From Actinomycetota bacterium (GTDB lineage: Bacteria; Actinomycetota; UBA4738; HRBIN12): a stretch of DNA of 64,000 nt. Numbering within the stretch: position 1 is the first letter of the stretch; each line of letters starts with the position of its first letter. Where the stretch lies: contig DATKDI010000081.1 in the NCBI GenBank assembly GCA_035512775.1, forward strand, positions 7,495-71,494, read 5' to 3'. Below, piece after piece: positions 6,438-56,023 of the stretch. The position numbers were made by a program, and so were the translations under genes. The notes under the pieces were generated by a model that was not told where the DNA came from, searched no databases, and was given only the letters and a program-made list of their open reading frames with translations.

Positions 6438-6644
6438 ATGTTCGGCTCGCCCGTCGTCACGCACCCGGTCTGTGACCTCGATCTGCACCAGCGCATCCGG
6501 GAGGCGAGGCGAGACGCCGTCGCCCGATCCGTCCGAGGGAGGGGACGGCATCGCCGCCTGTTCAGGCGTGGGCGGCTGGTCGACGTGGACGGAGAGGTCT
6601 TCCGCCCCGCCGGCGAGGACGTCGAACATTCATTCCGTTTCTAG
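6438..6644 (+). CDS. Small Arg-rich hypothetical protein
   Basis: 68 aa ORF starting immediately after the reductase stop (TAGATG); no family recognised. Confidence 0.5.
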   Translation: MFGSPVVTHPVCDLDLHQRIREARRDAVARSVRGRGRHRRLFRRGRLVDVDGEVFRPAGEDVEHSFRF

Positions 6645-6678
6645 GCCGTTTCTAGGCCGTTTCTAGGCCGTTTCTAGG
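6635..6678. repeat. Tandem repeat, 4 x 11 bp (CCGTTTCTAGG)
   Basis: Four perfect copies at 6635, 6646, 6657 and 6668. Confidence 0.97.
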
Positions 6679-6702
6679 AAGGTTCGCGCTGGATCGCTTC
6701 GA

Positions 6703-7422: not shown

Positions 7423-8284
7423 GGCCGGTCTCGCTCCGGCGCCGCAGGCGCACCTCGTCCGGGGTGACCTCGGCCTCGAGATCGACGCCGCCCAGCGCCG
7501 CCACGGCTTCGTCCGGGAGCCTGACCCGGCCGTCGTCTGAGATGGGGTCGACCGGCACGCCCTCGTGCAGGACGCGCCCGTCGCGCACCCTGATCCGGCG
7601 GTCCGCGCGCCTGGCGGCCACCAGGTCGTGCGTGACCATGATGATCGTGACGTGGAACTCGCGGTTGACCGCGCGGAACGCGTCCAGCACCCGGCCGGCG
7701 GACTCGGAGTCCAGCTCCGCGGTCGGCTCGTCCGCAAGAAGGATGGAGGGCGTGTTCGACAGCGCCGCGGCGATTGCCACGCGCTGCTGCTCGCCGCCGG
7801 AGAGCATGCCGGGCTTGTGCTTGGCACGGTCGGTGAGGCCGACGAGCTCGAGCAGGCCGTCGACGTCGTGTTTCTTGGCGACCTGCGTCCGGCGAACCGT
7901 CGCCGGGAGGCGGATGTTGTCGCGGACCGACAGGTAGGGGACCAGGTTGCGCGCCGTCCCCTGCCAGACGAAGCCGACCCGCTCGGCTCGGTAGTCCGTG
8001 AGGGCTTGATCTCCGAGCAGACCGAGGTCGCGTCCCTCCACCTCCACGACACCGGCCGAAGCATGGTCGAGACCACCCACCAGGTTCAGGATCGTCGATT
8101 TGCCGGCACCGCTCGGACCCACGACCGCCAGGAACTCCGCCGGCATCACGTCGAGGTCGACGCCGGCGAGCGCCACCACGCCGACGTCGCTCACCCGATA
8201 CACCTTGTAGGTGTGGCGGAGACGCACGAGCGCATCGGACCCCTCCGGCCGGAAGCGGTCGGCACTGACGACGTTCTCGATCAC
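7415..8284 (-). CDS. ABC transporter ATP-binding protein (LolD/MacB-like)
   Basis: GPSGAGKS, LSGGEQQRVAIA, LLADEPT, VTHD. GTG start at 8284 overlaps the permease stop. Confidence 0.93.
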   Translation of the reverse strand: MIENVVSADRFRPEGSDALVRLRHTYKVYRVSDVGVVALAGVDLDVMPAEFLAVVGPSGAGKSTILNLVGGLDHASAGVVEVEGRDLGLLGDQALTDYRAERVGFVWQGTARNLVPYLSVRDNIRLPATVRRTQVAKKHDVDGLLELVGLTDRAKHKPGMLSGGEQQRVAIAAALSNTPSILLADEPTAELDSESAGRVLDAFRAVNREFHVTIIMVTHDLVAARRADRRIRVRDGRVLHEGVPVDPISDDGRVRLPDEAVAALGGVDLEAEVTPDEVRLRRRSETGHA

Positions 8285-11200
8285 TCGGCCTCCCCTCGGA
8301 GCACGCCGGTGACGGAGGCGCGCAGGAGAGCGCGCGCGGACAGCGCGAGCGCGATCGTGGTCGCGGCCACGATGGCCGCGAGCGCCACGCCGAGTGAGAC
8401 CCAGTCCATCAGGAACACCGGAGGTGGATACGCGACCGAGAGGCTCGGTCCGACGTAGGGCATCATCAGGCGCAGCAGGAGGTAGCCGAGGCCGAGACCG
8501 GCCGCGACCGCGAAGCCGAGGAGCAGCAACTGTTCGAGGGCGAGCGTCCGGACGATCTGTCCGGACGCGGCGCCCATCGCCCTGAGGGCGGCGAACTCGT
8601 AGTCGCGTCGGCGCTGAGCGAAGTACAGCGCCGCCGCGACCCCCACGACCACGAGGCCCGCGCCACCGGCCGCCGCGACGAAGTTCATCCCGAGGGCGAG
8701 GCTCTGGGGGAGCTGAGCGAGGAACCCCTCGATCGGCGCCGTCCCAGCCACGTCCCCGGGGAAGAAGCCTTTCTGACGGAGCGCCGGCACCGGGCTCTGC
8801 TCGCCCTCGGCCCAGACCTCGTTCAGGACGAGCCCCGGCTCGGGCACCACCGCCGCGCGTTCGAGGAGGGCGGTGCTTGACGTGACGATGAACGGCTGAT
8901 TGGGAAGCATCGACGGGAACTGGATCGCGCTTGCGACCGGATCGAGCTCGATCTCCTGCCCGCCGAGGGTTGCGGGGAAGACGGGTCCCCCGGAGGACGA
9001 GATGCCGGGTGATACGAGGACGGGCAAGGGGTCGGAGGGCGGCACGATCCCGCCGATCACGTCGGAGGCTCCCGAGTCCATCTCGAATCGGACGCCGGGA
9101 CCCGCGGGCTCGATGGAGCCGGCGCTGCCACGCCACGTGAGCGGTTCCCACTCGCTCAACGACAGTGGCCCGCCGTCGGCGGCGATCGACGGGAACTCGA
9201 AGGTCGCCTCGTCCGGGGCGTCCAATGACGTTCGGTGGATCGTGATCGAGAGCAACCGAACCGCGCCCTCGATCGGCACCTCGTAGGAGGCGAATCCCGG
9301 CTCGATCGGCTGAGGCGGGGCGCTGTGGACGACCCCGGCCTCGTCCACGGCCGTCGCGGTGATCTTCAGGTCACGCACCCGCCGACTCGAGTCCATCTCG
9401 AACGTCAGCGCCGAGGACTCGGCCGGGAGTTCCATGCCGAAGGCGGGCGCCTGCAGCCGTCGCAGGATCTCGGGCAACGGCGTCTCGGAGAAGTCCTCGC
9501 GCCACCACCCGGCCGTCGCGTACGAGGCAGGGTCGATACCGAGGGTGACCGGTGGGAGCTGGAACGGTCCGCTCTCGAGTCGCGGCTCGGTGCGAACCAC
9601 CGGTGTCGTCATCGCGGGCATCTCGCGGATAACCGCTAGGACGTCCGCGGGCGGGGTGACGTTCACGCGCCAGTCGGCGCCGACCTGCGCGTGCGCCGCG
9701 TCCTCGTGATTGCGCAGGACGATCGCTCGGTACGACGTTGACACCACGAGGAGTCCCATCGAGAGCAGCAAGAGCAGGGCGGCGGCGAAGCCGGTCCCCG
9801 GCGAACGTCCGATCCGTCTCCCCGCGAGGTACCTCGGCAGTCGTCGCGAGCGGCCGATCCGGGAGTCGAGCGCTCGGAACACCAGGAGCAGGAGCCTGAG
9901 CGCGAGGAACGACCCGCCGAACAGCAGGAGGGTGGGGGCGACGAGGATCAGCGGGTCGATCTCGCCGGATCCGGCCTCGGGCCGCGTCCCGGTCCGAAGC
10001 TGGAGGAACGCGAACAGGCCGAGCGGAAGGACGAACAGCTCCACCGGCACGCGCGCGAGCAGCGGACGGTCCTCCCGGGACGCCGCCCTCCGCTCCTCGA
10101 GCACCGTCCGTGACACGTACGGGACGGAGAGCCCCAGGAGGATCACGCCTCCGACGACGGCGGCGACGAGCCCGAGGAGCTGGCCCGTGGTGTTCAGGCG
10201 GATCGGGAAGGTCACGCCGGGGAGATCGGGTCCGTTCGCGGTGCTCGCGAGCGCCGCGAGACCCATGCCGAGGAGCAACCCGAGAGGGAACGCGACGATC
10301 GCGGCGAACACGGCTTGGATCGCCTGCGCGGCGAGGAGCACACCTCGGCGGAAACCCCGGCTGTGCAGCACGGCGAGCTCGAACGCCTGTCTGGTGAGTG
10401 CGAGCGCACCGACGCCGGCGAGCACGGCCAGCGTGACCGCGCCGATCTGGAAGACCACGAGCAGGATCGGCACGGCGAGGTCGGCGATGCGCTGCCGGAC
10501 GATGTCGAGAAGCGTGCCCAGTCCCGAGATCAGATCCACCGTGCTGAGCCCCGCTTCTGTCTGCAGGCTCGTGAAGATCTGCTGCAGCTGGTCCGGAACC
10601 TCCGAGGCCCGCTCGAACGGCACGCCTGTGAGCGCGAGGTACGCGTCCCATGTGAACTGGGTCGTGAGCTCCAGCTCCCGTGTGACTCGGACCAGCGTCT
10701 CGAGCCCTACGACGGCGGGCTGGGGCTGGGTCGAGTCCGGATCCGGCAAGGGATTCTGCGAGCCGAACCAGAAGGGATCGTCTCGCTCGGCGGTGAGGTA
10801 GGTACCGGCGACGACGAGTGCCAGCCGCTTGCCGGAAGGACCGATGACGTCGAGACGGTCGCCAGGGCGCACGCGCAGGAGCCGGGCCATCGCGGCGTGG
10901 AGGATGATCCCGTCGTCGCCGGGGGGATCGCCGCGGATCTCGAGGTGCTCTTCGATGGTCTCGCGCGCAAGGATGGGCACGGACGGTCCGGCGGGGGTCC
11001 CGAGGCGTACCGTGCCCAACCCCTGCCGGACGATCCGATCCAGGGGAAGCGACTCGGTGCGCGTGGTGATGACCTCGTCCGCAGCGTCCCAGTCGAAGCT
11101 CTGATCGCCGAACACCTGCAGGCGAGCGTGCCGCACGGTGGGGGGAGCGCCGGCGAGCTCCGAGGACAGGATCGCTTCGCGTGCGGCGTCTGCGTAGATC

Positions 11201-11313
11201 GGACCGGCGACGAGGACCCCCACCGAGAAGGCCAGCGTGACCACGACGGCCAAGCCCAGCAGCCGCTGAGCGACGAAGCGCTTCAACAGGAACCGAAGGG
11301 TTGCCATACGCAT
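8281..11313 (-). CDS. Large FtsX-like ABC permease
   Basis: 1010 aa, two FtsX-type TM blocks (AFELAVLHSRG; RRDYEFAALRAMGA) separated by large extracytoplasmic domains; directly upstream of two ATPases. Confidence 0.88.
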   Translation of the reverse strand: MRMATLRFLLKRFVAQRLLGLAVVVTLAFSVGVLVAGPIYADAAREAILSSELAGAPPTVRHARLQVFGDQSFDWDAADEVITTRTESLPLDRIVRQGLGTVRLGTPAGPSVPILARETIEEHLEIRGDPPGDDGIILHAAMARLLRVRPGDRLDVIGPSGKRLALVVAGTYLTAERDDPFWFGSQNPLPDPDSTQPQPAVVGLETLVRVTRELELTTQFTWDAYLALTGVPFERASEVPDQLQQIFTSLQTEAGLSTVDLISGLGTLLDIVRQRIADLAVPILLVVFQIGAVTLAVLAGVGALALTRQAFELAVLHSRGFRRGVLLAAQAIQAVFAAIVAFPLGLLLGMGLAALASTANGPDLPGVTFPIRLNTTGQLLGLVAAVVGGVILLGLSVPYVSRTVLEERRAASREDRPLLARVPVELFVLPLGLFAFLQLRTGTRPEAGSGEIDPLILVAPTLLLFGGSFLALRLLLLVFRALDSRIGRSRRLPRYLAGRRIGRSPGTGFAAALLLLLSMGLLVVSTSYRAIVLRNHEDAAHAQVGADWRVNVTPPADVLAVIREMPAMTTPVVRTEPRLESGPFQLPPVTLGIDPASYATAGWWREDFSETPLPEILRRLQAPAFGMELPAESSALTFEMDSSRRVRDLKITATAVDEAGVVHSAPPQPIEPGFASYEVPIEGAVRLLSITIHRTSLDAPDEATFEFPSIAADGGPLSLSEWEPLTWRGSAGSIEPAGPGVRFEMDSGASDVIGGIVPPSDPLPVLVSPGISSSGGPVFPATLGGQEIELDPVASAIQFPSMLPNQPFIVTSSTALLERAAVVPEPGLVLNEVWAEGEQSPVPALRQKGFFPGDVAGTAPIEGFLAQLPQSLALGMNFVAAAGGAGLVVVGVAAALYFAQRRRDYEFAALRAMGAASGQIVRTLALEQLLLLGFAVAAGLGLGYLLLRLMMPYVGPSLSVAYPPPVFLMDWVSLGVALAAIVAATTIALALSARALLRASVTGVLRGEAE

Positions 11314-11486
11314 CTCAGGGCCCGGCGAGGGCCCCGTCGACCGATGATACGGACCTGCGCTTCCTTGCCGATGGCCGGGAGTGTCGGAACCTTGCCCCCG
11401 GGTGAGTGCTTGCTAGGCTGCGAGTGACCGCCGGACCCGTCGAGGAACCCCAGAGAGACCCTAGAAGAAACCTCGAGGAGACGCAG

Positions 11487-12644
11487 ATGGATAGGCCCGA
11501 GATCATCCTGGCGCCCGGCCCCACGCCCATCCCGCCCGAGGTGCTCCTCGCACAGGGCAGTCCTCTCGTCTATCACCGAGGGCCCGGCTTCGGACGGCTG
11601 ATGCGCGACGTGACGGCGCGACTGAAGGAGCTGTACCGAACGGAGGGAGCCGACGTCCTGCTGATGACGTCCTCCGGCACCGGCGGGCTCGAGTCCGCCG
11701 TCCAGAACGTCTTCTCTCCCGGAGACGAGGTCCTCATCCCGCTCGCAGGCTTCTTCTCCGAGCGGTGGCGCTCCCTCGCGACCGCCATGGGCCTTGTGGT
11801 TCGCACGGTGGACCACGAGTGGGGAGAGAAGGTCGACACGTCGCGGGTCGCGGACGCGCTCGCGGAGCGTCCCGTGAAGGCCGTGCTGCTCACCCACTCG
11901 GAGACCTCGACCGGCGTGATCCAGCCGGTGCAGGAGCTCGCCCGCGTCGCCAACGACGCCGGTGTGATGGTGGTCGCGGACGTCGTGAGCAGCCTCGGCG
12001 CCGTTCCGTTCGAGTTCGATGCCTGGGGGATCGATGTCGCCGTCGGCGGCTCGCAGAAGGCGCTCTCGGCGAGCCCGGGTATCGCGTTCGTCGCGATCAG
12101 CCGGCGGGCGTGGGATGCCCACGCCGCCGCGACGATGCCGCGGTTCTACTTCGACTGGTCGATCTACCGCCGATTCGCCGAGCTGCCCGACCCGGAGAAC
12201 CCGTGGACGCCGGCGATCAGCGTGATGCAGGGACTCCACGCGGCACTCGAGCTGTACTTCCAGGACGGGGTCGACACGGCCCATCGCCGCCATGAGCTCC
12301 TGTCGCGCGCGGTGAAAGAAGGCGTGAAGGCGCTCGGCCTCGATCTGTTCGGCGAAGGGCTCGATCACAACTGGACCGTCACCGCGATCCGCGCCCCGGA
12401 GGGGATCGACGCCGACACGATCAGCGACCGTATCCGATCGGACTTCGGCTGTGTGCTCGCGCCCGGCCAGGGCCCGTTGAAGGGGAAGGTCTTCCGGATC
12501 GGACACTTCGGGTACTTCAGCGAGCTCGACATCATCCGCGGCCTCGCCGCCCTGGAGATGACCCTCGAACGGCTCGGCCATCCCGTGAAGCGGGGAGCGG
12601 CCGTGGCTTCGGCCGAGGGTGTGTTCCAGGACGCGGCCACGTAA
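11487..12644 (+). CDS. Class V PLP aminotransferase (serine-pyruvate/phosphoserine aminotransferase-like)
   Basis: PGPTPIP, HSETSTG, DVVSSLG, GSQKAL (PLP lysine), FRIGHFG. SD GAGGAG before ATG 11487; abuts serA. Confidence 0.92.
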   Translation: MDRPEIILAPGPTPIPPEVLLAQGSPLVYHRGPGFGRLMRDVTARLKELYRTEGADVLLMTSSGTGGLESAVQNVFSPGDEVLIPLAGFFSERWRSLATAMGLVVRTVDHEWGEKVDTSRVADALAERPVKAVLLTHSETSTGVIQPVQELARVANDAGVMVVADVVSSLGAVPFEFDAWGIDVAVGGSQKALSASPGIAFVAISRRAWDAHAAATMPRFYFDWSIYRRFAELPDPENPWTPAISVMQGLHAALELYFQDGVDTAHRRHELLSRAVKEGVKALGLDLFGEGLDHNWTVTAIRAPEGIDADTISDRIRSDFGCVLAPGQGPLKGKVFRIGHFGYFSELDIIRGLAALEMTLERLGHPVKRGAAVASAEGVFQDAAT

Positions 12645-44084: not shown

Positions 44085-44771
44085 CTACTTCCAGGCGTGG
44101 AGGATCAGACGACCTTCCTCGATCAGCTCCGGATGCTTGCGCTCGATCCGCCGGAAGCCGACGTCGCGGAGCATCGCCTCCACGGCCGGGGGGTTCGCCC
44201 CCCACCAGTTCGTCGGGTCATCGTTCAGCTCGGTTCCCGGATAGAAGAGCATGACTGGGTCGGGGTCTTCGACCTTCGCCGTGTGCGAGTCGAAGATCAG
44301 TTGATCGCCCGTCACGCTTGCGACGCGCTCGAGCGCGAGCAGCGGATGTCGGAGGTGGTACAGCACGCCGACGAACAGCACCAGATCGAACGTTCCGACC
44401 TTTTCGGGCGAGAGGTCCATCACGTCGATCTCGAGGTCGTCGGCCCGCGAACCGAGGATCCGGCTCGCCGTGAGGAAGCCCTCCTTCGTTCCCCAGCCCT
44501 CCCCACTCCAGCAATAGGAGTCGGTGGCGAGGACGCGGCTGGCGCCCCGCCTCTCGGCTTCGAACGTGAAGACCCCGTCCCAGGCCCCGATGTCCAGCAC
44601 GCTCTTGCCGGAGAGGTCCGAAGGCAGCTCGAGCGGGGCCATCCGGCTCGGCGTGTCGTCGACGCCGGGCGTGACGATGCCGTCCCCAAGATCGATCCGG
44701 TGGTACCAGTTGACGTCGGCGATCTCCGCCTTGACCTTCTCGATGTCCTGGAAGCCACTACTTCGGTTCAT
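44085..44771 (-). CDS. Class I SAM-dependent methyltransferase (CmoB/DUF1698-like)
   Basis: WYHRIDLGDG..TPG, VLDIGAWDG, FVGVLYHLRHP, NWWG.N. Confidence 0.85.
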   Translation of the reverse strand: MNRSSGFQDIEKVKAEIADVNWYHRIDLGDGIVTPGVDDTPSRMAPLELPSDLSGKSVLDIGAWDGVFTFEAERRGASRVLATDSYCWSGEGWGTKEGFLTASRILGSRADDLEIDVMDLSPEKVGTFDLVLFVGVLYHLRHPLLALERVASVTGDQLIFDSHTAKVEDPDPVMLFYPGTELNDDPTNWWGANPPAVEAMLRDVGFRRIERKHPELIEEGRLILHAWK

Positions 44772-44853
44772 CGCTTCGGCCCTCGTGCGATCCGCATCGA
44801 CTCTCGATCTCCGCTGCATCCTAGCGTTGTGCCGGAGGGCACATCGTCACGCC

Positions 44854-44900
44854 TGGTAGTCCCAACGGGATCTGAACCCATGTCTTCACCTTGAGAGGGT
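44854..44900 (-). repeat. tRNA-Glu 3'-half copy A (att-like), ending in encoded CCA
   Basis: 44857-44900 matches tRNA 54900-54943 with 2 mismatches; TGG at 44854-44856 reads CCA on the minus strand. Confidence 0.95.
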
Positions 44901-45279
44901 TCTCGGGGCCGGTTCCACTACCTGCGACGATGACCGAGCTCGTGCTGCCGACCTGCGGATTCCTTGCTCGATGGTTCCCATCGTTACTTGACGGGTCCCG
45001 GTCGTTCGCGGGACGAATGCGGGACGAATGAGCCGCCCGCCGCGTGTGGGCATCAGGTCGTGAAGCACAGGCGGCCACGAGGAGAGAGCGCGCTCAGGCC
45101 AGCCCCCCAAAGAAGAGTCAATCCGAGAGGTCGAGGCCGATTGGGTCCGGCCAGCGGCATGGCCCGAAGCAGGGCCAGGAGTCTGGTCGCCTCATATGGC
45201 CGCGTGAGCGCTTCTCCTGCACCCATGCAGCGAGCGCGGCACCTCCGAACCGAGCGCACCAGGCTCGGAGGAGGTGAGA

Positions 45280-45578
45280 GTGACCGAACCACCCTGGGGC
45301 TCGTTGCGGCCAGCTGGGGCGTGATCATGGCGTTATCGCCGGTCATGCAGATCCGCTGGATGATGCGCCTCAGATCCTCTCGTGACGTGTCGATCGGCTA
45401 CCTGCTTGTCATCGTCGTGGGGTTCGCGATCTGGATCGCCTACGGGATCGTGATCCGCGATCCCGCGGTCGTTGGCCCCTACACCGTCGCGTTCATCGTG
45501 GGGCTGGGGACGATCGCGGTCGCCGTCCACTTGCGGAAGCTGCAGGAGCGCCGAGCCACGCACGCCAAGGTTCCATGA
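45280..45578 (+). pseudogene. SemiSWEET/PQ-loop family small transporter, apparent 1-nt frameshift just after the start
   Basis: SPVMQI...SSRDVS...GF.IW..YG...D..V...N-like pattern in the reading frame from ~45282. SD GGAGG and GTG (45280) are out of frame with it. Confidence 0.65.
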
Positions 45579-46187
45579 CCGATCGGGTTGCCGCCGGAGT
45601 TGGTTGCGATGACGGCCACGCAGGGAGAGGACGGCCGTGGTCCAAAGGTTTGCCGTTCTGCTGGCCTGCTGGATGGGCGAGCGAACCTCGGTCACGAGAT
45701 GACGGTGGAACCGCGCCGGGCGGACCCGGCCGAGGCAAGGCGTGACCCCGGAGGCTAAGTGGGTGCGTTGTGTTGAGGGCGAGAGGAGAGACTGGGGAAC
45801 CCTCGGGTGAGCAGCGCAGGAAGAGGCGGCCTTGGCGACGATCGCCCGAGACGCCATGGATAACGTGCCGCACGCTCGGGGTCGGAGCCCCATTCCATCC
45901 GAACGGTCTCAACAACCGACCGGGCTTCGGTCTGTGTTCAACTACGAATGATGATGCGAGTCCGGCGACACAGCGCCTGCATGATCGGTATGGCGATCGC
46001 GGTCCCCGGCGGGACGGCGCAGGCACCCACGGCTGGCCGGGCCTTCATCGCCAGCGTGGCTCCCTTTCGACGCCTCGTCTCCATGGTCGGGCTGTTCGTC
46101 GACCCCGCTAGGCCTCAACGGCGGCACCCTGTTCTGTTCCCCGTCCCGGTGGTCGCTTCCCGTTGGTCACATCGGCGGGCGGGTTAG

Positions 46188-47420
46188 ATGTCGGGTCCTC
46201 CCGATGACGACAAGGCTGTCCGATCCGTTCGTCAGCGGATGGCCATCCCGGTGGCCGAGTTCCTTCGCACTGAAGCTGCCGGCGGGGTGCTGTTGGTCCT
46301 GGCGACATTGGGCGCGCTCGTGTGGGCGAACAGCCCGTGGGATGAGTCCTACCGGGACCTCTGGCACCATGAGCTGAGCATTGGAGTCGGCCGGTTTGCC
46401 ATAAGCGAAGACCTCGGCCACTGGATCAACGACGGACTGATGGCTGTGTTCTTCTTCGTCGTCGGTTTGGAGATCAAGCGCGAACTCGTGGTGGGCGAGT
46501 TGAGCGACCCGCGGGCGGCAAGCCTTCCGGTCCTGGCCGCGCTCGGCGGGATGGTCGTGCCGGCGGTGTTGTTCATCGCCATAGCAGGAGGCGGCGAGGC
46601 AGGACGGGGCTGGGGCATCCCGATGGCGACCGACATCGCATTCGTCGTCGGGGTGCTGGCGCTGCTCGGCTCCCGCGTCCCTTCGGGTCTCAAGCTGTTC
46701 CTGCTGACCTTGGCGATCGTCGATGACCTCGGCGCGATCGCCGTGATTGCCGTCTTCTACTCCGAAGGTATCGACGCCGCCTGGCTGGCCGGGGCAGGCG
46801 CGTCCCTCCTGCTCGTCGTCGTCGCCCGCCGGCTCGGGCTGCGCTCGCCGCTGGCGTACGTGCCGCTCGCCCTGGCGGCATGGGTGTGTACCCTCGAGTC
46901 CGGGGTCCACGCCACCGTGGCCGGGGTCGGGCTCGGCCTGCTGACGCCGGCACGTCCATTTCGAGGTCAGCCGGTGCTCGAGAATCTCGAGCACCGGCTC
47001 CATCCATGGAGCAGCTTCTTGATCGTGCCGGTGTTCGCGCTGGCCAACGCCGGTGTGGATCTTGGATCGGGCGCGGTCGGATCCGCGCTCGGCGGTCGAA
47101 TCGCGTGGGCGGTGATCGTCGGGTTGCTGGTTGGAAAGACGTTCGGTATCGCCGCGTTCGCCGCGCTCGGTCTGCGGCTCCGGGCCGGCACGCTCCCCGC
47201 CGACGTACGGCTCGGCCACACCGTGGGAGCCGGTGCCCTAGCCGGCATCGGCTTCACCGTGTCGCTGTTCGTCACAGGCCTTGCGTTCGACACGCCAGAC
47301 CTGATCGCAGACGCGAAGATCGGCATCCTCGCCGCTTCGATCCTGGCCGGCACGTTGGGCACCACCGTGCTCCTCACGCTGCGCCGCCACCCGGCAACGT
47401 CCTCGGGCTCCGGTCGATGA
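46188..47420 (+). CDS. nhaA: Na+/H+ antiporter NhaA
   Basis: WINDGLMAVFF, EIKREL, GWGIPMATDIAF, LAIVDDLGA, GIGFTVSLF. Confidence 0.96.
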   Translation: MSGPPDDDKAVRSVRQRMAIPVAEFLRTEAAGGVLLVLATLGALVWANSPWDESYRDLWHHELSIGVGRFAISEDLGHWINDGLMAVFFFVVGLEIKRELVVGELSDPRAASLPVLAALGGMVVPAVLFIAIAGGGEAGRGWGIPMATDIAFVVGVLALLGSRVPSGLKLFLLTLAIVDDLGAIAVIAVFYSEGIDAAWLAGAGASLLLVVVARRLGLRSPLAYVPLALAAWVCTLESGVHATVAGVGLGLLTPARPFRGQPVLENLEHRLHPWSSFLIVPVFALANAGVDLGSGAVGSALGGRIAWAVIVGLLVGKTFGIAAFAALGLRLRAGTLPADVRLGHTVGAGALAGIGFTVSLFVTGLAFDTPDLIADAKIGILAASILAGTLGTTVLLTLRRHPATSSGSGR

Positions 47421-47451
47421 CCGGGCATTCCGACCTGTCCGCTCGAGCGCC

Positions 47452-49293
47452 ATGAGCGGCGCCGAGCGGGGCTACGCCGCGCCGCCGTTCGCTCCGCTGG
47501 AGCACGCCGATGGGTACCTGCCGCTGGAGGATCACGGACTGATCGGTGACGGCGCCACCGCCGCACTCGTCGGCCGTGACGGAGCGATCTCCTGGCTGTG
47601 CCTGCCGCGGTTCGACTCCCCGCCTGTGTTCTGCTCGATCCTTGACCACCGACGGGGCGGGAGGTTCCTCGTCGCACCCGAAAGCCCTTCCGAGACCCGG
47701 CAGCGCTACGAACCTGACAGCGGCGTCCTGACCACCGAGATGCGCTCGCCGACCGGCCTGGTACGCGTGACCGACGCGTTGACGCTGCGCCGTGGGGTCG
47801 ACATCACCGAGGACGTGACCGCCGCCCGCGGCGAGCTCCTCCGCTCGGTGGTCGTCCTCGACGGCGAGGCCCGGATCAGGGTCAGCGTCGAGCCACGCGG
47901 CGGCGCATCGGCGTCGCGGCGCGGCGACGGCTTCCACGTCCGCTGTCACGACCATCCCGACCTCGACCTGCAGTTGTCGGCCACCGGCCAGCTCGAAGGG
48001 CTCGACACCATCCTGGCGTTGCGCGCCGGTGAGCAGATCCACGTCGGGCTGCGCTGGGGGCGGGGCCCTCATCGCGGCTACGATTGGCGGCCCGCTGAGG
48101 ATCTGCAGGGAACGCTCGACGTGTGGCGGGCGTGGATACACCACTTCAACTACGTCGGGCCGAACGGACCACTGGTGCGTCGGTCGGCCATAACCCTCAA
48201 GCTCCTCGATCACTTTGCCAGCGGCGCCATCGTCGCCGCGCCCACTTCGTCGCTGCCCGAAGCCCTCGGCGGGCTGCGCAACTGGGACTACCGCTATACC
48301 TGGGTCCGCGACGCCGCCTTCTCGGTCTACGCCCTGCGCCGCATCGGGCTCGATCGCGAGGCGTGGAGGTTCCTCAGCTGGGTCCTCGACGCCATCGAGG
48401 GAGAAGGTGAGCCCCGTGTGATGTACGATCTCGACGGGAACCAGCCCCCTGCCGAACGCGAGGACGCCGAGCTGGAGGGCTACCGCAGGTCGCAGCCGGT
48501 TCGCTGGGGGAATGCCGCCGCCTCGCAGCGCCAGAACGACGTCTTCGGTGAGATCCTCGACTGCGCCTACCTATGGGTCCGCGGTGGTGGCACGATCGAT
48601 CCGCGGTTGTGGGAGCGGCTGCGATCGCTGGCCGAGAGTGCCGCCGACTCGTGGCGGACTCCGGACCACGGCATCTGGGAGGTCCGCGCGATGGGGCGGG
48701 TCTTCACCTACTCCGCCGCCCTGTGCCAGGTCGCCCTCGACCGGGCCGCGAAGCTGGCCGGCCAGCTCGGATCCGTCGGCGATGCCAACCGCTGGGCGGC
48801 AGAGGCGGCGCGGATCCGCGACGCGATCCTGACCGACGCCTGGGATCCCGAGCGGACGTCGCTGACCGAGCACCTCGGAGGCGGCGGGCTCGACGCCAGC
48901 CTGCTCGCCCTCCCACTCCGGCGCGTTGTCACGACCCAGCATCCCAAGATGGTCGCGACGGTCGACGCGGTGATGCGGCGTCTCGGCGCCGGCGACGGTC
49001 TTCTCTACCGCTACCTTCCCCATGAGTCCCCCGACGGGATCGCCGGTCAGGAAGGAGCCTTCCTGCTGTGCAGCTTCTGGCTCGTCGACAACCTCGCCGG
49101 CCAGGGCCGCCTCGACGAGGCCCACGCACTGTTCGAGTCCCTCTGTTCGCGCGCGGGCCCGCTCGGGCTCCTACCCGAGCAGATCGACCCGACCACCGGC
49201 GCATTCCTGGGCAACTACCCACAGGCGTTCAGCCACGTCGGGCTCATCTCCAGCGGCATCAACCTCGGTCGCCGGGCCGAGGAGCGATCATGA
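47452..49293 (+). CDS. Glycoside hydrolase family 15 (trehalase/glucoamylase-like)
   Basis: DHGLIGD, RNWDYRYTWVRD, PDHGIWEVR, EGAFLLCSFW, GNYPQAFSH. Confidence 0.93.
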   Translation: MSGAERGYAAPPFAPLEHADGYLPLEDHGLIGDGATAALVGRDGAISWLCLPRFDSPPVFCSILDHRRGGRFLVAPESPSETRQRYEPDSGVLTTEMRSPTGLVRVTDALTLRRGVDITEDVTAARGELLRSVVVLDGEARIRVSVEPRGGASASRRGDGFHVRCHDHPDLDLQLSATGQLEGLDTILALRAGEQIHVGLRWGRGPHRGYDWRPAEDLQGTLDVWRAWIHHFNYVGPNGPLVRRSAITLKLLDHFASGAIVAAPTSSLPEALGGLRNWDYRYTWVRDAAFSVYALRRIGLDREAWRFLSWVLDAIEGEGEPRVMYDLDGNQPPAEREDAELEGYRRSQPVRWGNAAASQRQNDVFGEILDCAYLWVRGGGTIDPRLWERLRSLAESAADSWRTPDHGIWEVRAMGRVFTYSAALCQVALDRAAKLAGQLGSVGDANRWAAEAARIRDAILTDAWDPERTSLTEHLGGGGLDASLLALPLRRVVTTQHPKMVATVDAVMRRLGAGDGLLYRYLPHESPDGIAGQEGAFLLCSFWLVDNLAGQGRLDEAHALFESLCSRAGPLGLLPEQIDPTTGAFLGNYPQAFSHVGLISSGINLGRRAEERS

Positions 49294-50645
49294 CCCAGCT
49301 CGTCATCCTCGGCGCCGCCGGCGATCTCACCTCCCGCTACCTCATCCCCGCGCTCGGCGAGCTCGGCGGCGCAGGTGCCCTGCCCCCGGAGCTCACCATC
49401 ATCGGCGTCGACCGGCAACCGTGGGACTACGATGAGTTCCGGCTTCACCTCGCCCAACGGCTCGATAGCCAGGCTGCGACGTTCCTCTCGGGCCTTCGCT
49501 ATCACCGCGGCGATGTGACCGACGCCGAGACGCTCCGCGCCGCGTTCGACCCACCCGACGCGCCCGCCGTGGTCTACCTCGCGCTGCCCCCACACGTCGT
49601 CCCCGGAGCCGTGCAGGCGCTCGGCGCGCTGCCGCTCGCTCGGCGCAGCCGGATCGTGGCCGAGAAGCCCTTCGGCGACGATCTGCACTCGGCCCGCTGG
49701 CTCAACACGCTCTTGCACGAAGTGGCGCCCGAGGAACAGGTGTTCCGAATCGACCACTTCCTCGGCAAGCAGACCGTGCAGAACGTCCTGGGCTTGCGCT
49801 TCGCCAACCGGATCTTCGAGGCCGTCTGGAACGCCCAACACGTCGAAGCTGTCGACATCGTCTGGGACGAGACCCTCGCCCTCGAGGGGAGGGCCGGCTA
49901 CTACGACACTGTAGGGGCGCTGCGCGACATGGTGCAGAACCACCTCATCCAGTTGCTGTGCCTGCTCGCCATGGAGCCGCCCGTCACGCTCGACGAGCGC
50001 TCCCTTCGCGACCGCAAGGTCGACGTGCTGCGTGCCGTCCGTCGACCCACCCTCGACGACGTACGTCGCCACACCCTTCGGGCTCGCTACCGGGCCGGTA
50101 CGGCCGGCGGAATCACCGTCCCGGGCTACGTTGACGAACCCGGTGTCGACCCTGAACGCCGAACCGAGACCTTTGCCGCCGTCACGTTGTTCGTAGACAA
50201 CTGGCGCTGGGCGGGCGTACCGTTCACGCTGCGCAGTGGCAAGGCGCTCGGCGCCGACCGCCACGAGGTCCGCGTCCGCTTCCGCCCCGTCCCTCACCTC
50301 GCCTTCGACCAAAACCAAGACCAGGACCCACAGCCCAACGTCCTACGCCTGCACGTCGATCCAGACCGGGTCACCCTCGAAGTCAACCTCAACGGTACCG
50401 GCGATCCGTTCCGACTCGAACGGGCCGGCATGGCCGTGGTCCTGGCCCCCCAGGAGCTGTCCGCCTACGCTAGGCTGCTCCTCGACATCTTCGCCGGCGA
50501 TCCGGTCCTGAGCATCCGGGCCGATGAGGCGGAAGAAGCATGGCGGTTCATCGAGCCGATCGTCGACGGATGGCGCAACGAAGCAACACCTCTGCTCGAA
50601 TACCCCGCCGGCTCGTCAGGACCCCACGAACGCGACCGCACATGA
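49290..50645 (+). CDS. zwf: Glucose-6-phosphate 1-dehydrogenase
   Basis: GAAGDLT, EKPFG.D, RIDHFLGK, RDMVQNH, RWAGVPF.LR.GK; ATG overlaps the GH15 stop. Confidence 0.93.
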   Translation: MTQLVILGAAGDLTSRYLIPALGELGGAGALPPELTIIGVDRQPWDYDEFRLHLAQRLDSQAATFLSGLRYHRGDVTDAETLRAAFDPPDAPAVVYLALPPHVVPGAVQALGALPLARRSRIVAEKPFGDDLHSARWLNTLLHEVAPEEQVFRIDHFLGKQTVQNVLGLRFANRIFEAVWNAQHVEAVDIVWDETLALEGRAGYYDTVGALRDMVQNHLIQLLCLLAMEPPVTLDERSLRDRKVDVLRAVRRPTLDDVRRHTLRARYRAGTAGGITVPGYVDEPGVDPERRTETFAAVTLFVDNWRWAGVPFTLRSGKALGADRHEVRVRFRPVPHLAFDQNQDQDPQPNVLRLHVDPDRVTLEVNLNGTGDPFRLERAGMAVVLAPQELSAYARLLLDIFAGDPVLSIRADEAEEAWRFIEPIVDGWRNEATPLLEYPAGSSGPHERDRT

Positions 50646-50862
50646 GTATCTCACCACCGTCTGAACCGCCCTGGGTTTCATGGGACCTGATGCACCCCAA
50701 GTCGCGGAGCCAGAGACGGTCATCGTGCGTGACGGCCCCGCCGAAGCGCCGCGCATCTTCGTATCCTAAGTAGGAGGCGCCGAACCTCGCGCGCATCGAC
50801 CACTGGGTGCTTCATCCGCGATGAACACCCAGGATCTAAGCCCTGACAAGGGCGGGGGCACC

Positions 50863-52008
50863 ATGAACTCACTTGTTGACGATTATCCGGCCGACCTCCT
50901 CCTGGCTCATGAGCCGCCCTGCATCTCGCTCTACCAGCCGACCCATCGGAGTCATCCGGAGAACAAGCAGGACCCGACCCGAGTCCGCAACCTCGTCAAG
51001 GCGGTGGAGGAGTCGCTGCGGCAGAAGTACCCGACGCGTGAGGTCCAACCGCTCCTCGAACCGTTCGAGGCCCTCGCGATCGATCGCGGCTTCTGGAACC
51101 ACACCCTTGACGGATTGGCGGTGCTCGGGGCGTCGGGCACGTTCCTCGTCTACCGGCTCCAGCGGCCGGTTGTCGAGTTGGCTGTCGTGGCCGATAGCTT
51201 CCACACGAAGCCGCTGATGCGCATCCGCCAGTCGGCCGACCGATACCAAGTCCTCGGTCTTACGCTCACCGAGATCAAGTTGTTCGAGGGCAACCGCGAT
51301 GCACTCGACGAGGTCGAGCTGGCCGAAGGGGTTCCGCGAACCATCGTTGAAGCTCTGGGCGAGGAGTTGACGGATCCGCATCAAACCGTCGCTTCCTACG
51401 CAGGCGTCAGAGGGCCGGCTATGAAGCATGGTCACGGTGCCAGGAGCGATGAGACGGACATCGACGCTGAGAGATTCTTCCGCGCGGTCAGCCGTGCGGT
51501 CCTCGAACACCACTCAAGGACGTCGGAGCTTCCGCTGTTGTTGGCGGCCCTGCCTCAGCACCACCACCTCTTCCGCAAGGTCAGCGACAACCCGTTCTTG
51601 ATGGCGGAAGGGATCGATGCCCATCCGGATTCCCTTCCGATCGACGAACTCCGCGACCGCGCCTGGGGCGTCGTCGAGCCTTACTATCGTGCGCGGTTGG
51701 CCCAACTGGTCGAAGCGTTCGGCGCAGCGAGGTCGGAAGGGCTCGGCGCGGACGATCCGGCGCAGGTCGCCGAGGCGGCCGCGGCCGGGCGGGTTGCGAC
51801 GTTGCTCATCGAGGTCGACCGTCAGATCCCCGGTCGGATCGACGCCGCGACTGGCGGGCTCGATTTCGGTGAACTGACTCATCCGGAGGTGGACGACATC
51901 CTCGACGACCTTGGTGCGTTGGTCATGGGCGCGGGTGGTGGGGTGGTGGTCGTCCCGGCCGAGCAGATGCCGACACCCACGGGGGTAGCTGCGATCTACC
52001 GGTACTGA
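50863..52008 (+). CDS. Bacterial aeRF1/pelota-fold protein (baeRF3-like), no GGQ
   Basis: CISLYQPTHR, FW....GLAV, DSFH.KPL, HGHG loop, A..GRV.TL, C-terminal GVAAIYRY typical of the aeRF1 L7Ae-like domain. Alternative start at 50821. Confidence 0.8.
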   Translation: MNSLVDDYPADLLLAHEPPCISLYQPTHRSHPENKQDPTRVRNLVKAVEESLRQKYPTREVQPLLEPFEALAIDRGFWNHTLDGLAVLGASGTFLVYRLQRPVVELAVVADSFHTKPLMRIRQSADRYQVLGLTLTEIKLFEGNRDALDEVELAEGVPRTIVEALGEELTDPHQTVASYAGVRGPAMKHGHGARSDETDIDAERFFRAVSRAVLEHHSRTSELPLLLAALPQHHHLFRKVSDNPFLMAEGIDAHPDSLPIDELRDRAWGVVEPYYRARLAQLVEAFGAARSEGLGADDPAQVAEAAAAGRVATLLIEVDRQIPGRIDAATGGLDFGELTHPEVDDILDDLGALVMGAGGGVVVVPAEQMPTPTGVAAIYRY

Positions 52009-52037
52009 GTCGGAGTCAACAACGGAGAGGATGTTTC

Positions 52038-52352
52038 GTGAAGGTTCAGATCAACACCGATAGCAACATCGAGGGTCACGAAGAGATGACCCAGCAGGTC
52101 GAGGCCGCGCTGGGAGCCGCCGTGGGCCGGTTCATCGATCAGATCACCCGGGTGGAGGTCCACCTCAGCGACCTCAACAGCCACAAGTTCGGCGCCGACG
52201 ACAAGCGCTGCTTGCTCGAAGCCCGCCTTGCAGGCCGCCGGCCGACAGCGGTGAGCCATCAGGCGGCGACCGTCCAGGAGGCGATCGAAGGCGCCGCCGA
52301 CAAGCTGAAGAACAACCTCGAGAGCACCCTCGGGCGGCTTGGCAGAGGATAG
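52038..52352 (+). CDS. Short HPF/RaiA family ribosome-associated protein
   Basis: MKVQIN.D..IEG, ITRVEVHLSD, DKRC.LEARL.G..P.AV; SD GGAGAGGA. Confidence 0.85.
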   Translation: MKVQINTDSNIEGHEEMTQQVEAALGAAVGRFIDQITRVEVHLSDLNSHKFGADDKRCLLEARLAGRRPTAVSHQAATVQEAIEGAADKLKNNLESTLGRLGRG

Positions 52353-52450
52353 CTGCCCCCGAAGCGGGAGGACGGGCTCGTCGGAGTTCCTTCGAGCGTT
52401 CACTCGAGCGTTCCTTGCGAGAGGTCGGCGCAGGTCAGCGGTCTATTGAG

Positions 52451-52496
52451 TAGTCCCAACGGGATTTCAACCCGTGTCTTCACCTTGAGAGGGTGA
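52451..52496 (-). repeat. tRNA-Glu 3'-half copy B (att-like)
   Basis: 46 bp identical to 54900-54945 except one substitution in the T-loop. Confidence 0.95.
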
Positions 52497-52723
52497 CCGG
52501 GGGTCTGTGACCTGCAACCCTTGCCGCAAGCAGGCCCTGACCTGCTGTTTCGGCTTCTGTTTACGCTGGGTCGCTACCCGTCGTTCTTCGACATCGTGCG
52601 GGATCTGTGCGGGATCGTCGTCTCTCCCCGCGCCTCTCCGGGCGACCCAACGAGGGCCCACAGGACCATTGTCGACGTCGGTTGCCGGTAGGGGCAGAGG
52701 CCATATGCTGGGAGAATCGAGGG

Positions 52724-53026
52724 ATGCCACTTCCCGAGATCGCCTGCCCCTCGTGCGGCGAGAGCGAGCGTTTACGCGGCCGACGTGAGACGAAGGGACT
52801 GGTCATCACCTGCGAAGCGTGCGGGGGCAGTTGGGAGCGCGACGTACGGCGTCGGTGCCGGTTGTGCGGCTCGGAGGACCTCCGCTACACGCCGCGGCCG
52901 TTGTGGGAGCGGGGTCGCGGTAACCAGCGCACTCCGGCCGGTCGCGTGGACGCGTGGGCGTGCAACTCGTGTGGCGGCCGCAACGTGACGTCGGCCGAGC
53001 CGGGGGTCGCTTCTGCCCACGGCTGA
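52724..53026 (+). CDS. Small double zinc-ribbon protein
   Basis: Four CxxC pairs: CPSC, CEAC, CRLC, CNSC in 100 aa. Confidence 0.7.
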   Translation: MPLPEIACPSCGESERLRGRRETKGLVITCEACGGSWERDVRRRCRLCGSEDLRYTPRPLWERGRGNQRTPAGRVDAWACNSCGGRNVTSAEPGVASAHG

Positions 53027-53232
53027 CGCCGGTCCTCGAGCTGGTGAGCGAGTACTACATGACCACCCGGTCGGCGGTTCCTGCGTTTCACCGAGTCAAG
53101 GCATCGCGCAAGCGTAGCGCGAAGGCCGGCCGCTCGGTATCCGCGACCGCGCTGATCGGTTACGCGCAACTCCCGGTCGTCGGCGCGGCGATCAGAGGCA
53201 GTAGCTCTCACAGTCTCGATTCGTCATCGATC

Positions 53233-53448
53233 TCACCCGGCCGACGCGAGGGATACCAGCATGGCCTCCGGCCGCTGTTTCCGCGCCTGCTCGAGCCAGA
53301 AAGCGTTCGGGAACAGGGCGAGCAGCGTTCCGTCGGTCCGCGAGAGCACCTCGACCCCCCGGATGTCCCGAAGGGCTGCGGCGCCGTCGGCGTCGGTGAG
53401 CCGTGCCACGGTGTAGGGGAGTGTGGACAGCTCAACAGGAGCGCCGTC
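53233..53448 (-). pseudogene. prfC: C-terminal remnant of peptide chain release factor 3
   Basis: GAPVELSTLPYTVARLTD...RGVEVLSRTDGTLLALFPNAFWL resembles the actinobacterial RF3 C-terminus; no GTPase domain upstream. Confidence 0.6.
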
Positions 53449-53540
53449 TTGGGTGCGGTTGCCGACGACTTGGTCTTCCTCATGCGCGACGTCGACGATC
53501 CCCTCCGCGGGTGTCAACGAATGGGTGGGACACACCTGGA

Positions 53541-54260
53541 TCACCCGTGACCCACCGTGGCGACATACACGGTGCTTGCAGCCTCGCCCCCGGTAAGTGG
53601 GTTCGGAAAGGTGATGACGTGCGCCTCGCATGACGCGAACACTTGCTCGAGGACGGAGATGTAGCCCTCGTCCGGGGAGGCGTCGGACCACAGGCCGTAG
53701 ACGCCTCCCGGGTTGAGACGATCGGCGAGTCGCCGCTGCCCCTCTGGATGGTAGAAGGGGGCGTGGCTGGGATGCAGGAGGTGCTGAGGCGTGTGGTCGA
53801 CGTCCACGAGGACGGCGTCATGGCGGTCCGGGGTGTCGGGCCCGAAGCTCGAGCCGGTGGCGACCATAGCGAAGAAATCGCCGTTGACGAGGTTGCATCG
53901 CCGATCCGAAGTCAATCCGTGGCTCAGCGGAAGCAGTCCACGTTGATGCCATTCGATGACCTCGCCCAGGACTTCGATGACCTGCAGGGAGCGCACCCGG
54001 GGGTCTCTCAGGACGGCTTGTGCGGTGTAGCCGAGGCCGAGCCCTCCGACCACGACGTCGAGATCTGCACCAGGGATGCTGGCGAGCGAGATATCGGCGA
54101 GTGCGATCTCAGCGGCAGTGAAGAGGCTCGACATGAGGAACTCATCGCCGAGCTTCACCTCGTAGACGTCGACCTGCAGGGTTGGTTCGAGTCGACGTCG
54201 CAGGCTGATCTCGCCGAGTGGTGTCGGGCGCCAGTCGAGCTCCTCGAAACTTGCACTCAC
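53541..54260 (-). CDS. Spermidine synthase-like SAM-binding protein
   Basis: DEFLMSSLFT.AE.ALA, VVGGLGLGYTA, GDFF, LVDVDHTP. Confidence 0.85.
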   Translation of the reverse strand: MSASFEELDWRPTPLGEISLRRRLEPTLQVDVYEVKLGDEFLMSSLFTAAEIALADISLASIPGADLDVVVGGLGLGYTAQAVLRDPRVRSLQVIEVLGEVIEWHQRGLLPLSHGLTSDRRCNLVNGDFFAMVATGSSFGPDTPDRHDAVLVDVDHTPQHLLHPSHAPFYHPEGQRRLADRLNPGGVYGLWSDASPDEGYISVLEQVFASCEAHVITFPNPLTGGEAASTVYVATVGHG

Positions 54261-54899
54261 CGTGTCATCCCGCCCGTGTGCACGTCGCTACGGTCCGGGG
54301 GCGTCGACGCGTCCATCGCCCTGACGTAGCCAGCATCCGCACCGCTGCGCAGGTCCACGCGATAGACCCCGGCTTGGGGAGCCTCTGTATCGGAGGCCGG
54401 TCGCCGAGCAGCGAGGGCCCGTTGAGCACGTCCGGTTCCATTAGCGCAGTGTCACGTTCAGGCATCGGCCGGCTTCCCGTCAAACCACCGAGCCCCTCGC
54501 GCAAGATGTCAGGGTCAATCCGCCCAACCGGCGCGAGGAGCGGCTTGCCCATGAAGAATGCCAGCGTGCTGTCTCGGCGCCGGAACACCTCCGCCCAGAG
54601 TGAGCTTCGGAGCGCCGTTGCTCCCGATCCCGACGTCCCTGAGATGGACCGCCGATCGAAGGAGCTCTCGTAGAGAGGGTTCAGGAAGGATTCCACACTT
54701 CTCCCCGTGCCCCCGGCGCTCGCCGCGAGATTGGTGCAGCCAGCTCCGTCGTCCGGATGGTTTCTCGCGAGCAGGGTCAACCACCGCAGAGGGTGGTTGC
54801 AACTCGCATGCGGGATCTGGCGGGATCTGGGCCTGCCAGTCCCACTCTCACAGGCCTGCCCGAGGCATGATTCGGCCCGTGACCTGCGGCTTTACCTCG

Positions 54900-54972
54900 T
54901 AGTCCCAACGGGATTTGAACCCGTGTCTTCACCTTGAGAGGGTGATGTCCTAGGCCTCTAGACGATGGGACC
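54900..54972 (-). tRNA. tRNA-Glu(CTC)
   Basis: GGTCCCATCGTCTAGAGGCCTAGGACATCACCCTCTCAAGGTGAAGACACGGGTTCAAATCCCGTTGGGACTA; complete cloverleaf, CCA not encoded. Confidence 0.97.
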
Positions 54973-55022: not shown

Positions 55023-55883
55023 TCAGCCCTTCCCGATGATCCGCGAAAGGACCGTCGAGTAGTCCTGGTCGCCGAGGCCGGCTTCCTCGGCCTCGGCGAA
55101 CCACTCCGCGGCCGCCGCGAGTAAGCGAGCGTCCACGCCGGCGGCCGCCGCGGTCTCCAGGATCAGCTCGGCGTCCTTCCGAGCGAGGGCGAGCCGGAAT
55201 CGAAGGGGGAATTCGCCTGTCTCGAGCTGATCGCGACGCCGCTTCGCTGCGAGTGAGAGCGGCGTCGAGGCCAGGATGTCCATCGTGAGCTCGCGGCCGA
55301 GCCCCATGCGGTCCGCGAGCGCGATCGTCTCTCCGAGGAGCGTGAGGGAGCCGACGAGGGTCGCGTTCGCCACCAGCTTCGCCGCCGCTCCGGAACCGAG
55401 GGGCCCTGCGACGAGAACGGATCCCAGATCGGCGAGCAGCGGGATCCATCGTTTGACGAGTCGGTGCGGGCCGCCGGCGAAGACCAAGAGCGTTCCGGAC
55501 TCCGCCTCCGACAAGCTCCCCAGAACCGGGGCATCGAGCAGCCCGGTCTCGGGCGGCAGCGCCGAGGCGAGCCATCGGATGGCGAGGGGCCCGACCGTGG
55601 ACATCTCGACCACCGTGGTCGAGGCGTCGGCGCCCGAGGCGATCCCATCTGGCCCCTCGGTCACGTCACGGAGCGCCGTGGGATCCGACACGACCGTGAC
55701 GAGCACCTCCGCCCGGCGGGCGGCGTCGCCCGGGCTCTTCGCCGGCACCGCTCCCCGCCCCACGAGCTCGGCCGCCTTCTCGGGTGTGCGGTTCCACACG
55801 ATCACCTCATGCCCGGCATCGAGGAACCGACGCGCGAATCGCCCGCCCATCGCCCCCAACCCGACCACCGCCACCTGGGTCAT
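55023..55883 (-). CDS. NAD(P)-dependent beta-hydroxyacid dehydrogenase (3-hydroxyisobutyrate DH family)
   Basis: GLGAMG, WNRT, EMSTVGP, LDAPVLGS, GSGAAAKLVAN. Confidence 0.92.
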   Translation of the reverse strand: MTQVAVVGLGAMGGRFARRFLDAGHEVIVWNRTPEKAAELVGRGAVPAKSPGDAARRAEVLVTVVSDPTALRDVTEGPDGIASGADASTTVVEMSTVGPLAIRWLASALPPETGLLDAPVLGSLSEAESGTLLVFAGGPHRLVKRWIPLLADLGSVLVAGPLGSGAAAKLVANATLVGSLTLLGETIALADRMGLGRELTMDILASTPLSLAAKRRRDQLETGEFPLRFRLALARKDAELILETAAAAGVDARLLAAAAEWFAEAEEAGLGDQDYSTVLSRIIGKG

Positions 55884-56023
55884 GCCGACCATGATGGCGT
55901 GGGACGTGACGTGCGACACGTCGGTGACGTGTCCAAGATCACGGGGCGTCCGTGCCCACGGGCACCGCCCGAGATCGCCCGTGCGCGTACCGTCAGACCC
56001 GTTACCGACGAAGGGGGCGGAAG

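Follow-up and report, generated by a model that had tools for sequence, protein, structure and literature searches.

How does a bacterium that already encodes a canonical hibernation-promoting factor (HPF) come to carry a second HPF gene, and what is the release-factor-like gene next to it? We addressed this question in an Actinomycetota bacterium (GTDB lineage Bacteria; Actinomycetota; UBA4738; HRBIN12; GenBank assembly GCA_035512775.1), in a stretch of 64,000 nucleotides (nt) with a high guanine-plus-cytosine (GC) content of 0.685 (contig DATKDI010000081.1, positions 7,495 to 71,494 of the forward strand; hereafter the window, in whose numbering coordinates are given). A preliminary description, made from the DNA letters alone, had proposed that the two genes are an A-site factor and an HPF/RaiA protein forming a dormancy module, moved by horizontal transfer as a mobile cassette and possibly representing an uncharacterised subfamily of the bacterial aeRF1 homologues (baeRF). 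We conclude that the pair is very probably a Balon-type A-site hibernation factor with its short HPF partner, acquired on an island at a tRNA-Glu(CTC) gene.

The large open reading frame (ORF) occupies 50863-52008 on the + strand, encodes 381 amino acids (aa) and ends in a TGA stop codon; its start at the ATG at 50863, and not at an upstream ATG at 50821, agrees with the N-termini of 30 orthologues. The protein matched the Pfam family baeRF_family3 (PF18845) with 172 bits, against a cut-off of 31.5. When we scanned the residues of Psychrobacter urativorans Balon against Pfam, they also matched baeRF_family3 (105.6 bits), which places the 381-aa protein in Balon's own family and not, as had been suggested, in an undescribed one. 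Its sole match in NCBIfam was NF052287, the 'AOC03_06830 family ribosome hibernation factor', over the full length (residues 16-381; E = 2.4e-53). A phmmer search of Protein Data Bank (PDB) sequences likewise returned a single match at E = 6.8e-17, to 8rd8_B, which is Balon in the 70S structure from P. urativorans, and a profile of 31 orthologues found the same chain at E = 4.4e-36.

The predicted structure pointed in the same direction. An AlphaFold2 model based on the orthologue alignment (predicted local distance difference test [pLDDT] 82.6; predicted template modelling score [pTM] 0.76) has a three-domain aeRF1-like fold that is nearest to the Balon structures. Foldseek searches of the PDB placed Balon 8rd8_B first (E = 6e-22; template modelling [TM] scores 0.60/0.63), and ranks 1-5 and 7 were occupied by Balon (AOC03_06830; 8RD8, 8RDV, 8RDW), Msmeg1130 and Rv2629 (8V9J, 8V9K, 8V9L), all of them baeRF_family3 proteins of three-domain fold (TM 0.55-0.64). 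The release factors aRF1 and eRF1 and the rescue factor Pelota/Dom34 trailed far behind, with Pelota at 8e-8 or weaker. The aeRF1/pelota-like architecture noticed in the preliminary description is thus borne out by both the profile match and the structural ranking.

We found no GGQ and no NIKS string anywhere in the 381-aa protein, and because both motifs are missing, we rejected the possibility that it is a catalytic class-I release factor (aeRF1). In 12 orthologues a 'GGQ' string does occur near residue 360, in the C-terminal domain; we dismissed these strings as having no bearing on catalysis. The HGHG loop read earlier at the expected place of GGQ is indeed present as H189-G190-H191-G192-A193-R194, where the consensus of the orthologue clade is H-G-H-G-G-K; the low-confidence loop of the model, residues 174-192, ends in the clade-conserved M-H-H-G-H-G-G-K. 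The clade profile aligns this motif with H-N-L-G-G-K-R of archaeal Pelota, followed by a shared x-F-F-x-x-V helix. The corresponding loop of eRF1 is H-G-R-G-G-Q-S, and we therefore take the aligned loop of the 381-aa protein to be the GGQ position. The clade keeps the glycines of this loop and has K or R in place of the catalytic Q; in the window copy, the second glycine has in addition become an alanine.

Elsewhere the protein carries features of the Balon group. The N-domain block T-H-R-x-H-P-x-N-x-Q-D-P is nearly invariant in the clade and aligns with THREHPANDQDP of Balon; within it, T-H-R-S-H-P, which contains H31-P32, is matched by THREHP in P. urativorans Balon, and all 31 orthologues keep P32. 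The model also predicts a two-strand element (residues 323-326 and 333-335) in the C-terminal domain, within a conserved I-P-G-R-I-D-x-x-T-G block; it may correspond to the features described for Balon as a bL27 trap loop and an EF-Tu-binding beta-hairpin insertion. The lack of GGQ and NIKS, the T-H-R-x-H-P block and an adjacent HPF/RaiA gene are all shared with the Balon group; in Balon, the N-domain 'HP motif' has been assigned the contact with the decoding centre (PMC10901736).

The small gene (52038-52352, +) encodes 104 aa and begins with a GTG codon exactly 29 nt 3' of the large ORF, behind a GGAGAGGA ribosome-binding site. Its assignment to HPF/RaiA in the preliminary description held, as did the coordinates, lengths, gene spacing and loop motif given there: the protein matched Ribosomal_S30AE (PF02482) with 38.8 bits, against a cut-off of 23.7. 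Its nearest solved relative is the HPF on the A. baumannii 70S ribosome (7M4Z chain v; E = 1e-17, or 2e-31 with a profile), and the profile also matched chloroplast PSRP1/pY and the RaiA solved together with Balon (8rd8_D; E = 0.0017). The model of the small protein (pLDDT 81.4) has a beta-alpha-beta-beta-beta-alpha topology and resembles 7m4z_v with a TM score of 0.86 at 40% identity and 8rd8_D with a TM score of 0.84 at 28% identity; these two outranked all other HPF, YfiA and pY structures, the whole set ranging from TM 0.71 to 0.86. Like these two, it is a single domain of the same fold with no C-terminal dimerisation domain. The host's canonical HPF lies on contig C77 (G000:C77:8284-8565; L001:1426-1977, - strand) beside a NarL-type response regulator; it begins MDLTFTGRG... 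and runs to about 122 aa from that Met, and BLASTP found no similarity between it and the HPF of the island.

Is the pairing peculiar to this locus? Orthologues of the 381-aa protein were collected from 80 loci in more than 10 phyla, at 45-77% identity, and a short HPF usually adjoins them. Among the 68 informative loci (those with room to show the neighbour), the HPF gene lies directly downstream of the Balon gene in 36, and at least 6 further loci have it directly upstream. In our protein library, clustered at 50% identity, the short-HPF subfamily itself numbers about 760 clusters at E <= 1e-10. Pairwise identities among the Balon proteins and among their HPF partners were correlated (Mantel r = 0.845; 0 of 2000 permutations), which indicates that the two genes share a history. 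In the window they probably form one co-transcribed operon.

We then asked how the pair came to lie where it does. An intact tRNA-Glu(CTC) gene, the integration target, lies at 54899..54972 (- strand), and its 47-nt core is identical in four congeners. Two 47-nt partial copies of its 3' part are found on the same strand, a distal one at 44856..44902, which runs from the anticodon arm to the 3' end with 3 mismatches and forms the left boundary of the inserted block, and a middle one at 52450..52496, with 1 mismatch, which begins 97 nt past the HPF stop codon. In both, the similarity to the gene ends exactly at the anticodon arm. The 47-mer core had 0 matches in shuffled sequence, so these attachment (att) repeats are far beyond chance. 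The native genes flanking the block, a methyltransferase on the left (44085-44819) and a 3-hydroxyisobutyrate-dehydrogenase-like gene on the right (55023-55919), are 10.2 kb apart in the window, compared with about 164 bp in congeners G015 and G011, where the tRNA-Glu alone lies between them. In the junction alignment, the native left flank abuts the distal partial copy to the base, and on the right the intact tRNA is followed by the native right flank. The partial-tRNA repeats together with this alignment are the signature of integration into the 3' end of a tRNA gene, and it has happened here twice in tandem, for about 10 kb in all. The att-bounded island of the preliminary description is accordingly on firmer ground than first claimed, with two partial copies, an intact tRNA and empty sites in relatives.

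The middle copy divides the island into two segments. Segment 2 (44903..52449; about 7.5 kb), with the Balon-HPF pair at its right-hand end, appears to be the older insertion, and segment 1 (52497..54898; about 2.4 kb), which adjoins the tRNA, the younger. The middle copy is a truncated pseudo-tRNA left by integration; over 52451-52512 (- strand) it is recognised as a tRNA above the Rfam gathering score (34.5 bits) and is not called by ARAGORN. The same tRNA-Glu carries other inserts in the genus. The closest relative by flank identity, G019 (L008, G019:C155:1-11000, 1362-9526), has a different 8-kb cargo that includes a HisKA_3 histidine kinase, an FAD-binding monooxygenase and a DUF2975 protein, and G023 has a 1.5-kb insert; given these differing inserts, the site is an integration hotspot in the genus.

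The distribution of the pair among relatives agrees with its arrival from outside. The Balon homologue is missing from 23 of 24 congeners and from all 16 other genomes of the order. The sole congener homologue, in G010, is 33% identical and sits beside a 2-oxoglutarate dehydrogenase and a permease with no HPF nearby; we rejected it as the same island, since it is a different paralogue in a different context. The short HPF was found in 0 of 25 congeners. The empty sites and this absence support horizontal transfer of the Balon-HPF pair into the genome inside the att-bounded tRNA island. The island's glucose-6-phosphate dehydrogenase (G6PD) is a foreign second copy as well, 44% identical to the native zwf product (contig C24), with those of the congeners reaching 39-50%.

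Beyond this genome, the orthologue tree requires 38 changes of phylum label where 19 would be the minimum. Pairs that cross phyla are well supported in it (Thermoleophilia with Desulfaltia; Nitrosospira with an Acidobacteria metagenome-assembled genome), as is the nesting of a Lysobacterales sequence within a Verrucomicrobiota clade. The sister of the window copy is a Methylocaldum sequence, at only 91% support in the SH-like approximate likelihood ratio test (SH-aLRT), and because no well-supported clade contains it, we dropped any donor call from the tree. This nearest neighbour (L011; NZ_CP194902.1, Methylocaldum sp. GT1BB) comes from a 5.3-Mb record titled 'plasmid unnamed', which is probably a chromosome or a mislabelled record and thus provides no evidence of plasmid carriage. 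An exact-protein look-up found identical proteins in no other assembly.

Such spread raises the question of what vehicle carries the pair in general. We rejected a plasmid-borne cassette, having found 1 match to a distant homologue in 72,556 plasmid records, and we rejected carriage on tRNA islands as a general route, since a tRNA lies within about 8 kb at 2 of 60 other loci. The mobile cassette of the preliminary description therefore stands in one respect, in that the pair was acquired inside an att-bounded island, and is too strong in others: the island has no integrase and carries other cargo, and the pair is seldom near tRNAs or on plasmids elsewhere. Both tRNA-linked loci are from Alcaligenaceae (L072:6885-10595 and L073:6884-12771). 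There the HPF-Balon pair is enclosed by two full tRNA-Gly(GCC) genes, which form an 86-nt repeat at 97% identity, and L073 also has four tandem repeats of about 600 nt at 9539-11841. These loci may represent another, independent carrier of the pair that is bounded by tRNAs.

The remaining cargo of segment 2 comprises, in order, an ORF for a SWEET/MtN3-like membrane protein (44964..45578, +; PF03083, E = 4.5e-8) with weak codon bias and a GC content at third codon positions (GC3) of 0.75, an unassigned stretch, an NhaA Na+/H+ antiporter (46188..47420, +; PF06965, E = 7.5e-145), a GH15 glycoside hydrolase of the trehalase/glucoamylase-like kind (47452..49293, +) and the G6PD (49287..50645, +), the last two assigned by both Pfam and NCBIfam. 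Segment 1 holds a zinc-ribbon ORF (52721-53026, +), a spermidine-synthase-like methyltransferase (53541-54260, -) and unassigned sequence. The stretches that adjoin the att copies, 44903-46187 and 53027-54898, show a weak bias by codon position and hold ORFs that match no family, and they may be decayed element genes. Some of the other cargo recurs beside Balon elsewhere: a Binatia metagenome-assembled genome (L079:5862-9146) has, in this order, a GH15 gene (64% identical), a G6PD fragment and Balon, and in Dyadobacter (L068-L071, L087) the order is Balon, HPF, NhaA. This recurrence hints at a larger, loosely conserved neighbourhood of stress genes.

The island also contains a short repeated motif. 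Direct doublets of the form GCGGGA-N4-6-GCGGGA occur 5 times in the window, against 0.25 expected. Three lie on the + strand near att copies: a GCGGGA-N5-GCGGGA doublet about 105 nt inside the distal copy (45008..45024), another of the same spacing about 100 nt inside the middle copy (52598..52614), and a GCGGGA-N4-GCGGGA doublet (54810..54825) that stops about 75 nt short of the 3' end of the tRNA. Away from the island, the motif occurs at 5236-5263. The doublets are absent from the tRNA-Glu loci of congeners, and they may be candidate arm-type recombinase sites of an integrase-less element.

Several observations weigh against reading the pair as a Balon-type factor and its partner brought in by integration. 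The large protein reaches 181.9 bits against the NF052287 equivalog cut-off of 330, which makes it a homologue outside the narrow Balon equivalog group; with P. urativorans Balon it shares only 21% identity when aligned by structure, and with the mycobacterial proteins 15-16%. Residues 174-192, the loop expected to contact the peptidyl-transferase centre, have pLDDT below 50. The clade's M-H-H-G-H-G-G-K (H-G-H-G-A-R in the window) is unlike Balon's T-G-D-G-G-S-D-R, so its contacts may differ, and no member of this H-G-H-G-G-K clade has been studied structurally or biochemically. The small protein scores 19.6 against the cut-off of 40.9 for TIGR00741, the yfiA/HPF equivalog, and in this it differs from the A. 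baumannii HPF and P. urativorans RaiA; missing the cut-off marks it as a divergent subfamily. A scan of 50400-52700 for sigma-70 promoters and terminators found no promoter, and its terminator-like matches were at chance level. There is no identifiable donor, the best identity being 75%, and composition gives no clear foreign signal, because the differences between island (GC 0.665-0.676) and flanks (0.68-0.685) are too small to be diagnostic. Finally, Pfam searches found no integrase among the ORFs adjoining the att copies, and neither the two segments nor, as far as could be detected, the rest of the window contain an integrase, excisionase or transfer gene.

This last observation bears on an alternative in which there was no site-specific integration: the tRNA-Glu would be a recombination hotspot, the att-like copies decayed duplicates of the tRNA, and the pair immobile now. 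A six-frame scan of the whole genome with PF00589 found 2 recombinases only, on contigs C18 and C71, and no integrase or remnant in the island. The inserts of G019 and G023 at the same tRNA have no detectable distal att copy, the middle copy in the window is a weak tRNA by Rfam, and in other phyla the pair is almost never adjacent to a tRNA or borne on a plasmid, all of which would fit such a view. However, the copies stop exactly at the anticodon arm and the left flank meets the distal copy to the base, as tyrosine recombinases leave them, and the element-specific GCGGGA doublets stand at similar offsets from all three att copies. We therefore consider this alternative unlikely as a replacement for integration, although the two are partly compatible, in that an integration in the past could be followed by immobility at present.

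A second alternative concerns function and not arrival. Could the large protein be a non-catalytic rescue or splitting factor of the Dom34/Pelota kind, or a defence against toxins that target ribosomes, with HPF acting only afterwards? Rescue and conflict roles were proposed for baeRF-1 beside a shutdown model (PMC6514570), Balon genes also adjoin RtcB repair genes (PMC10901736), and our own clade profile pairs the loop at the GGQ position with that of Pelota. Against this stand the fold and sequence comparisons, in which Balon structures come first, with Pelota well behind. Moreover, three family members have been observed on the ribosomal A site and the two mycobacterial ones inhibited in-vitro translation, and the recovery of a Balon knockout from prolonged stationary phase was examined (PMC10901736). 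The tight linkage to HPF fits hibernation, and Pfam searches of the island's ORFs found no toxin, RtcB or splitting ATPase. We regard a rescue or defence role as very unlikely. That assembly or binning of this metagenome-derived genome (83 contigs, 93.5% complete) produced the island as an artefact, with the pair coming from another organism, is hardly credible, because both flanks lie on the same contig and share their gene order with four congeners at 84-95% protein identity, the junctions bear the expected partial-tRNA duplications in the correct orientation, which a chimeric join would not give, and the island is similar to its flanks in GC content.

How would a Balon-type factor and a short HPF work together in this host? 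By homology to the solved P. urativorans complex 8RD8, the 381-aa protein would enter the ribosomal A site under starvation or stress. Its N-domain H-P element would touch the decoding centre and not the mRNA, and its central-domain loop would sit beside, not inside, the peptidyl-transferase centre. Peptidyl-tRNA would not be hydrolysed, since an H-G-H-G-A-R loop without the catalytic glutamine is expected to allow no peptide release. The 104-aa HPF would fill the tRNA/mRNA channel of the 30S subunit at the same time, an occupancy that is sterically possible for Balon and RaiA (PMC10901736), and the pair would silence and protect 70S ribosomes until conditions improve. Ribosome binding, joint occupancy, induction by stress and a benefit to the host are thus inferred by analogy. 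The two genes arrived as the last of what appears to be the older of two stacked integrase-less insertions, along with an extra G6PD, a GH15 enzyme and NhaA; the host has kept an unrelated canonical HPF of its own on another contig.

A bolder version of this account joins the unusual loop to the unusual island. The clade would then be a functionally distinct, self-sufficient unit of Balon and short HPF, with a strongly conserved, histidine-rich relic of the GGQ loop that engages the peptidyl-transferase centre in another way than Balon's lasso loop does, perhaps by binding that depends on pH or on a metal. It would spread on integrase-less tRNA islands mobilised in trans via the GCGGGA doublet sites, and, with universally conserved rRNA as the target of both proteins, it could work whatever the phylum of the host. 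We consider this version unlikely.

The idea of a module of A-site factor and HPF, supported here by family, fold and motifs, was essentially right in the preliminary description, and it was already published. Burroughs and Aravind described a baeRF-1/HPF neighbourhood in 2019, predicted non-catalytic A-site insertion together with HPF, and reported extensive lateral transfer (PMC6514570); that neighbourhood is exactly the linkage seen in the window, although theirs was a survey and ours is one insertion resolved to the base with empty sites. Helena-Bueno et al. solved Balon with RaiA on the ribosome in 2024 and found Balon genes 'most frequently adjacent to RaiA' (PMC10901736). According to a preprint of 2025, additional hpf copies have been acquired horizontally, often beside Balon and in some cases on integrative plasmids (10.1101/2025.11.04.686544). 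The novelty implied in the preliminary description does not survive these reports. As in known tRNA-integrated islands, including integrase-less mobilisable ones, a repeat of the tRNA 3' end bounds foreign cargo, with tandem accretion at one tRNA and variable cargo in sister species; unlike them, this island has none of the integrase, excisionase or transfer genes searched for, and its cargo consists of stress and physiology genes.

The locus reveals no new mechanism and no new kind of system. What it contributes is the base-resolved insertion with its empty sites, and the attention it draws to the highly conserved H-G-H-G-G-K clade. This is a very widespread Balon clade, 60-75% identical across phyla and common in environmental bacteria, with a short-HPF partner of its own. 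The window provides a cleanly resolved natural case in which horizontal transfer has given a bacterium a second ribosome-hibernation system, with the resident canonical HPF still in view, and this agrees with the recent proposal that such machinery is acquired horizontally as well as inherited.

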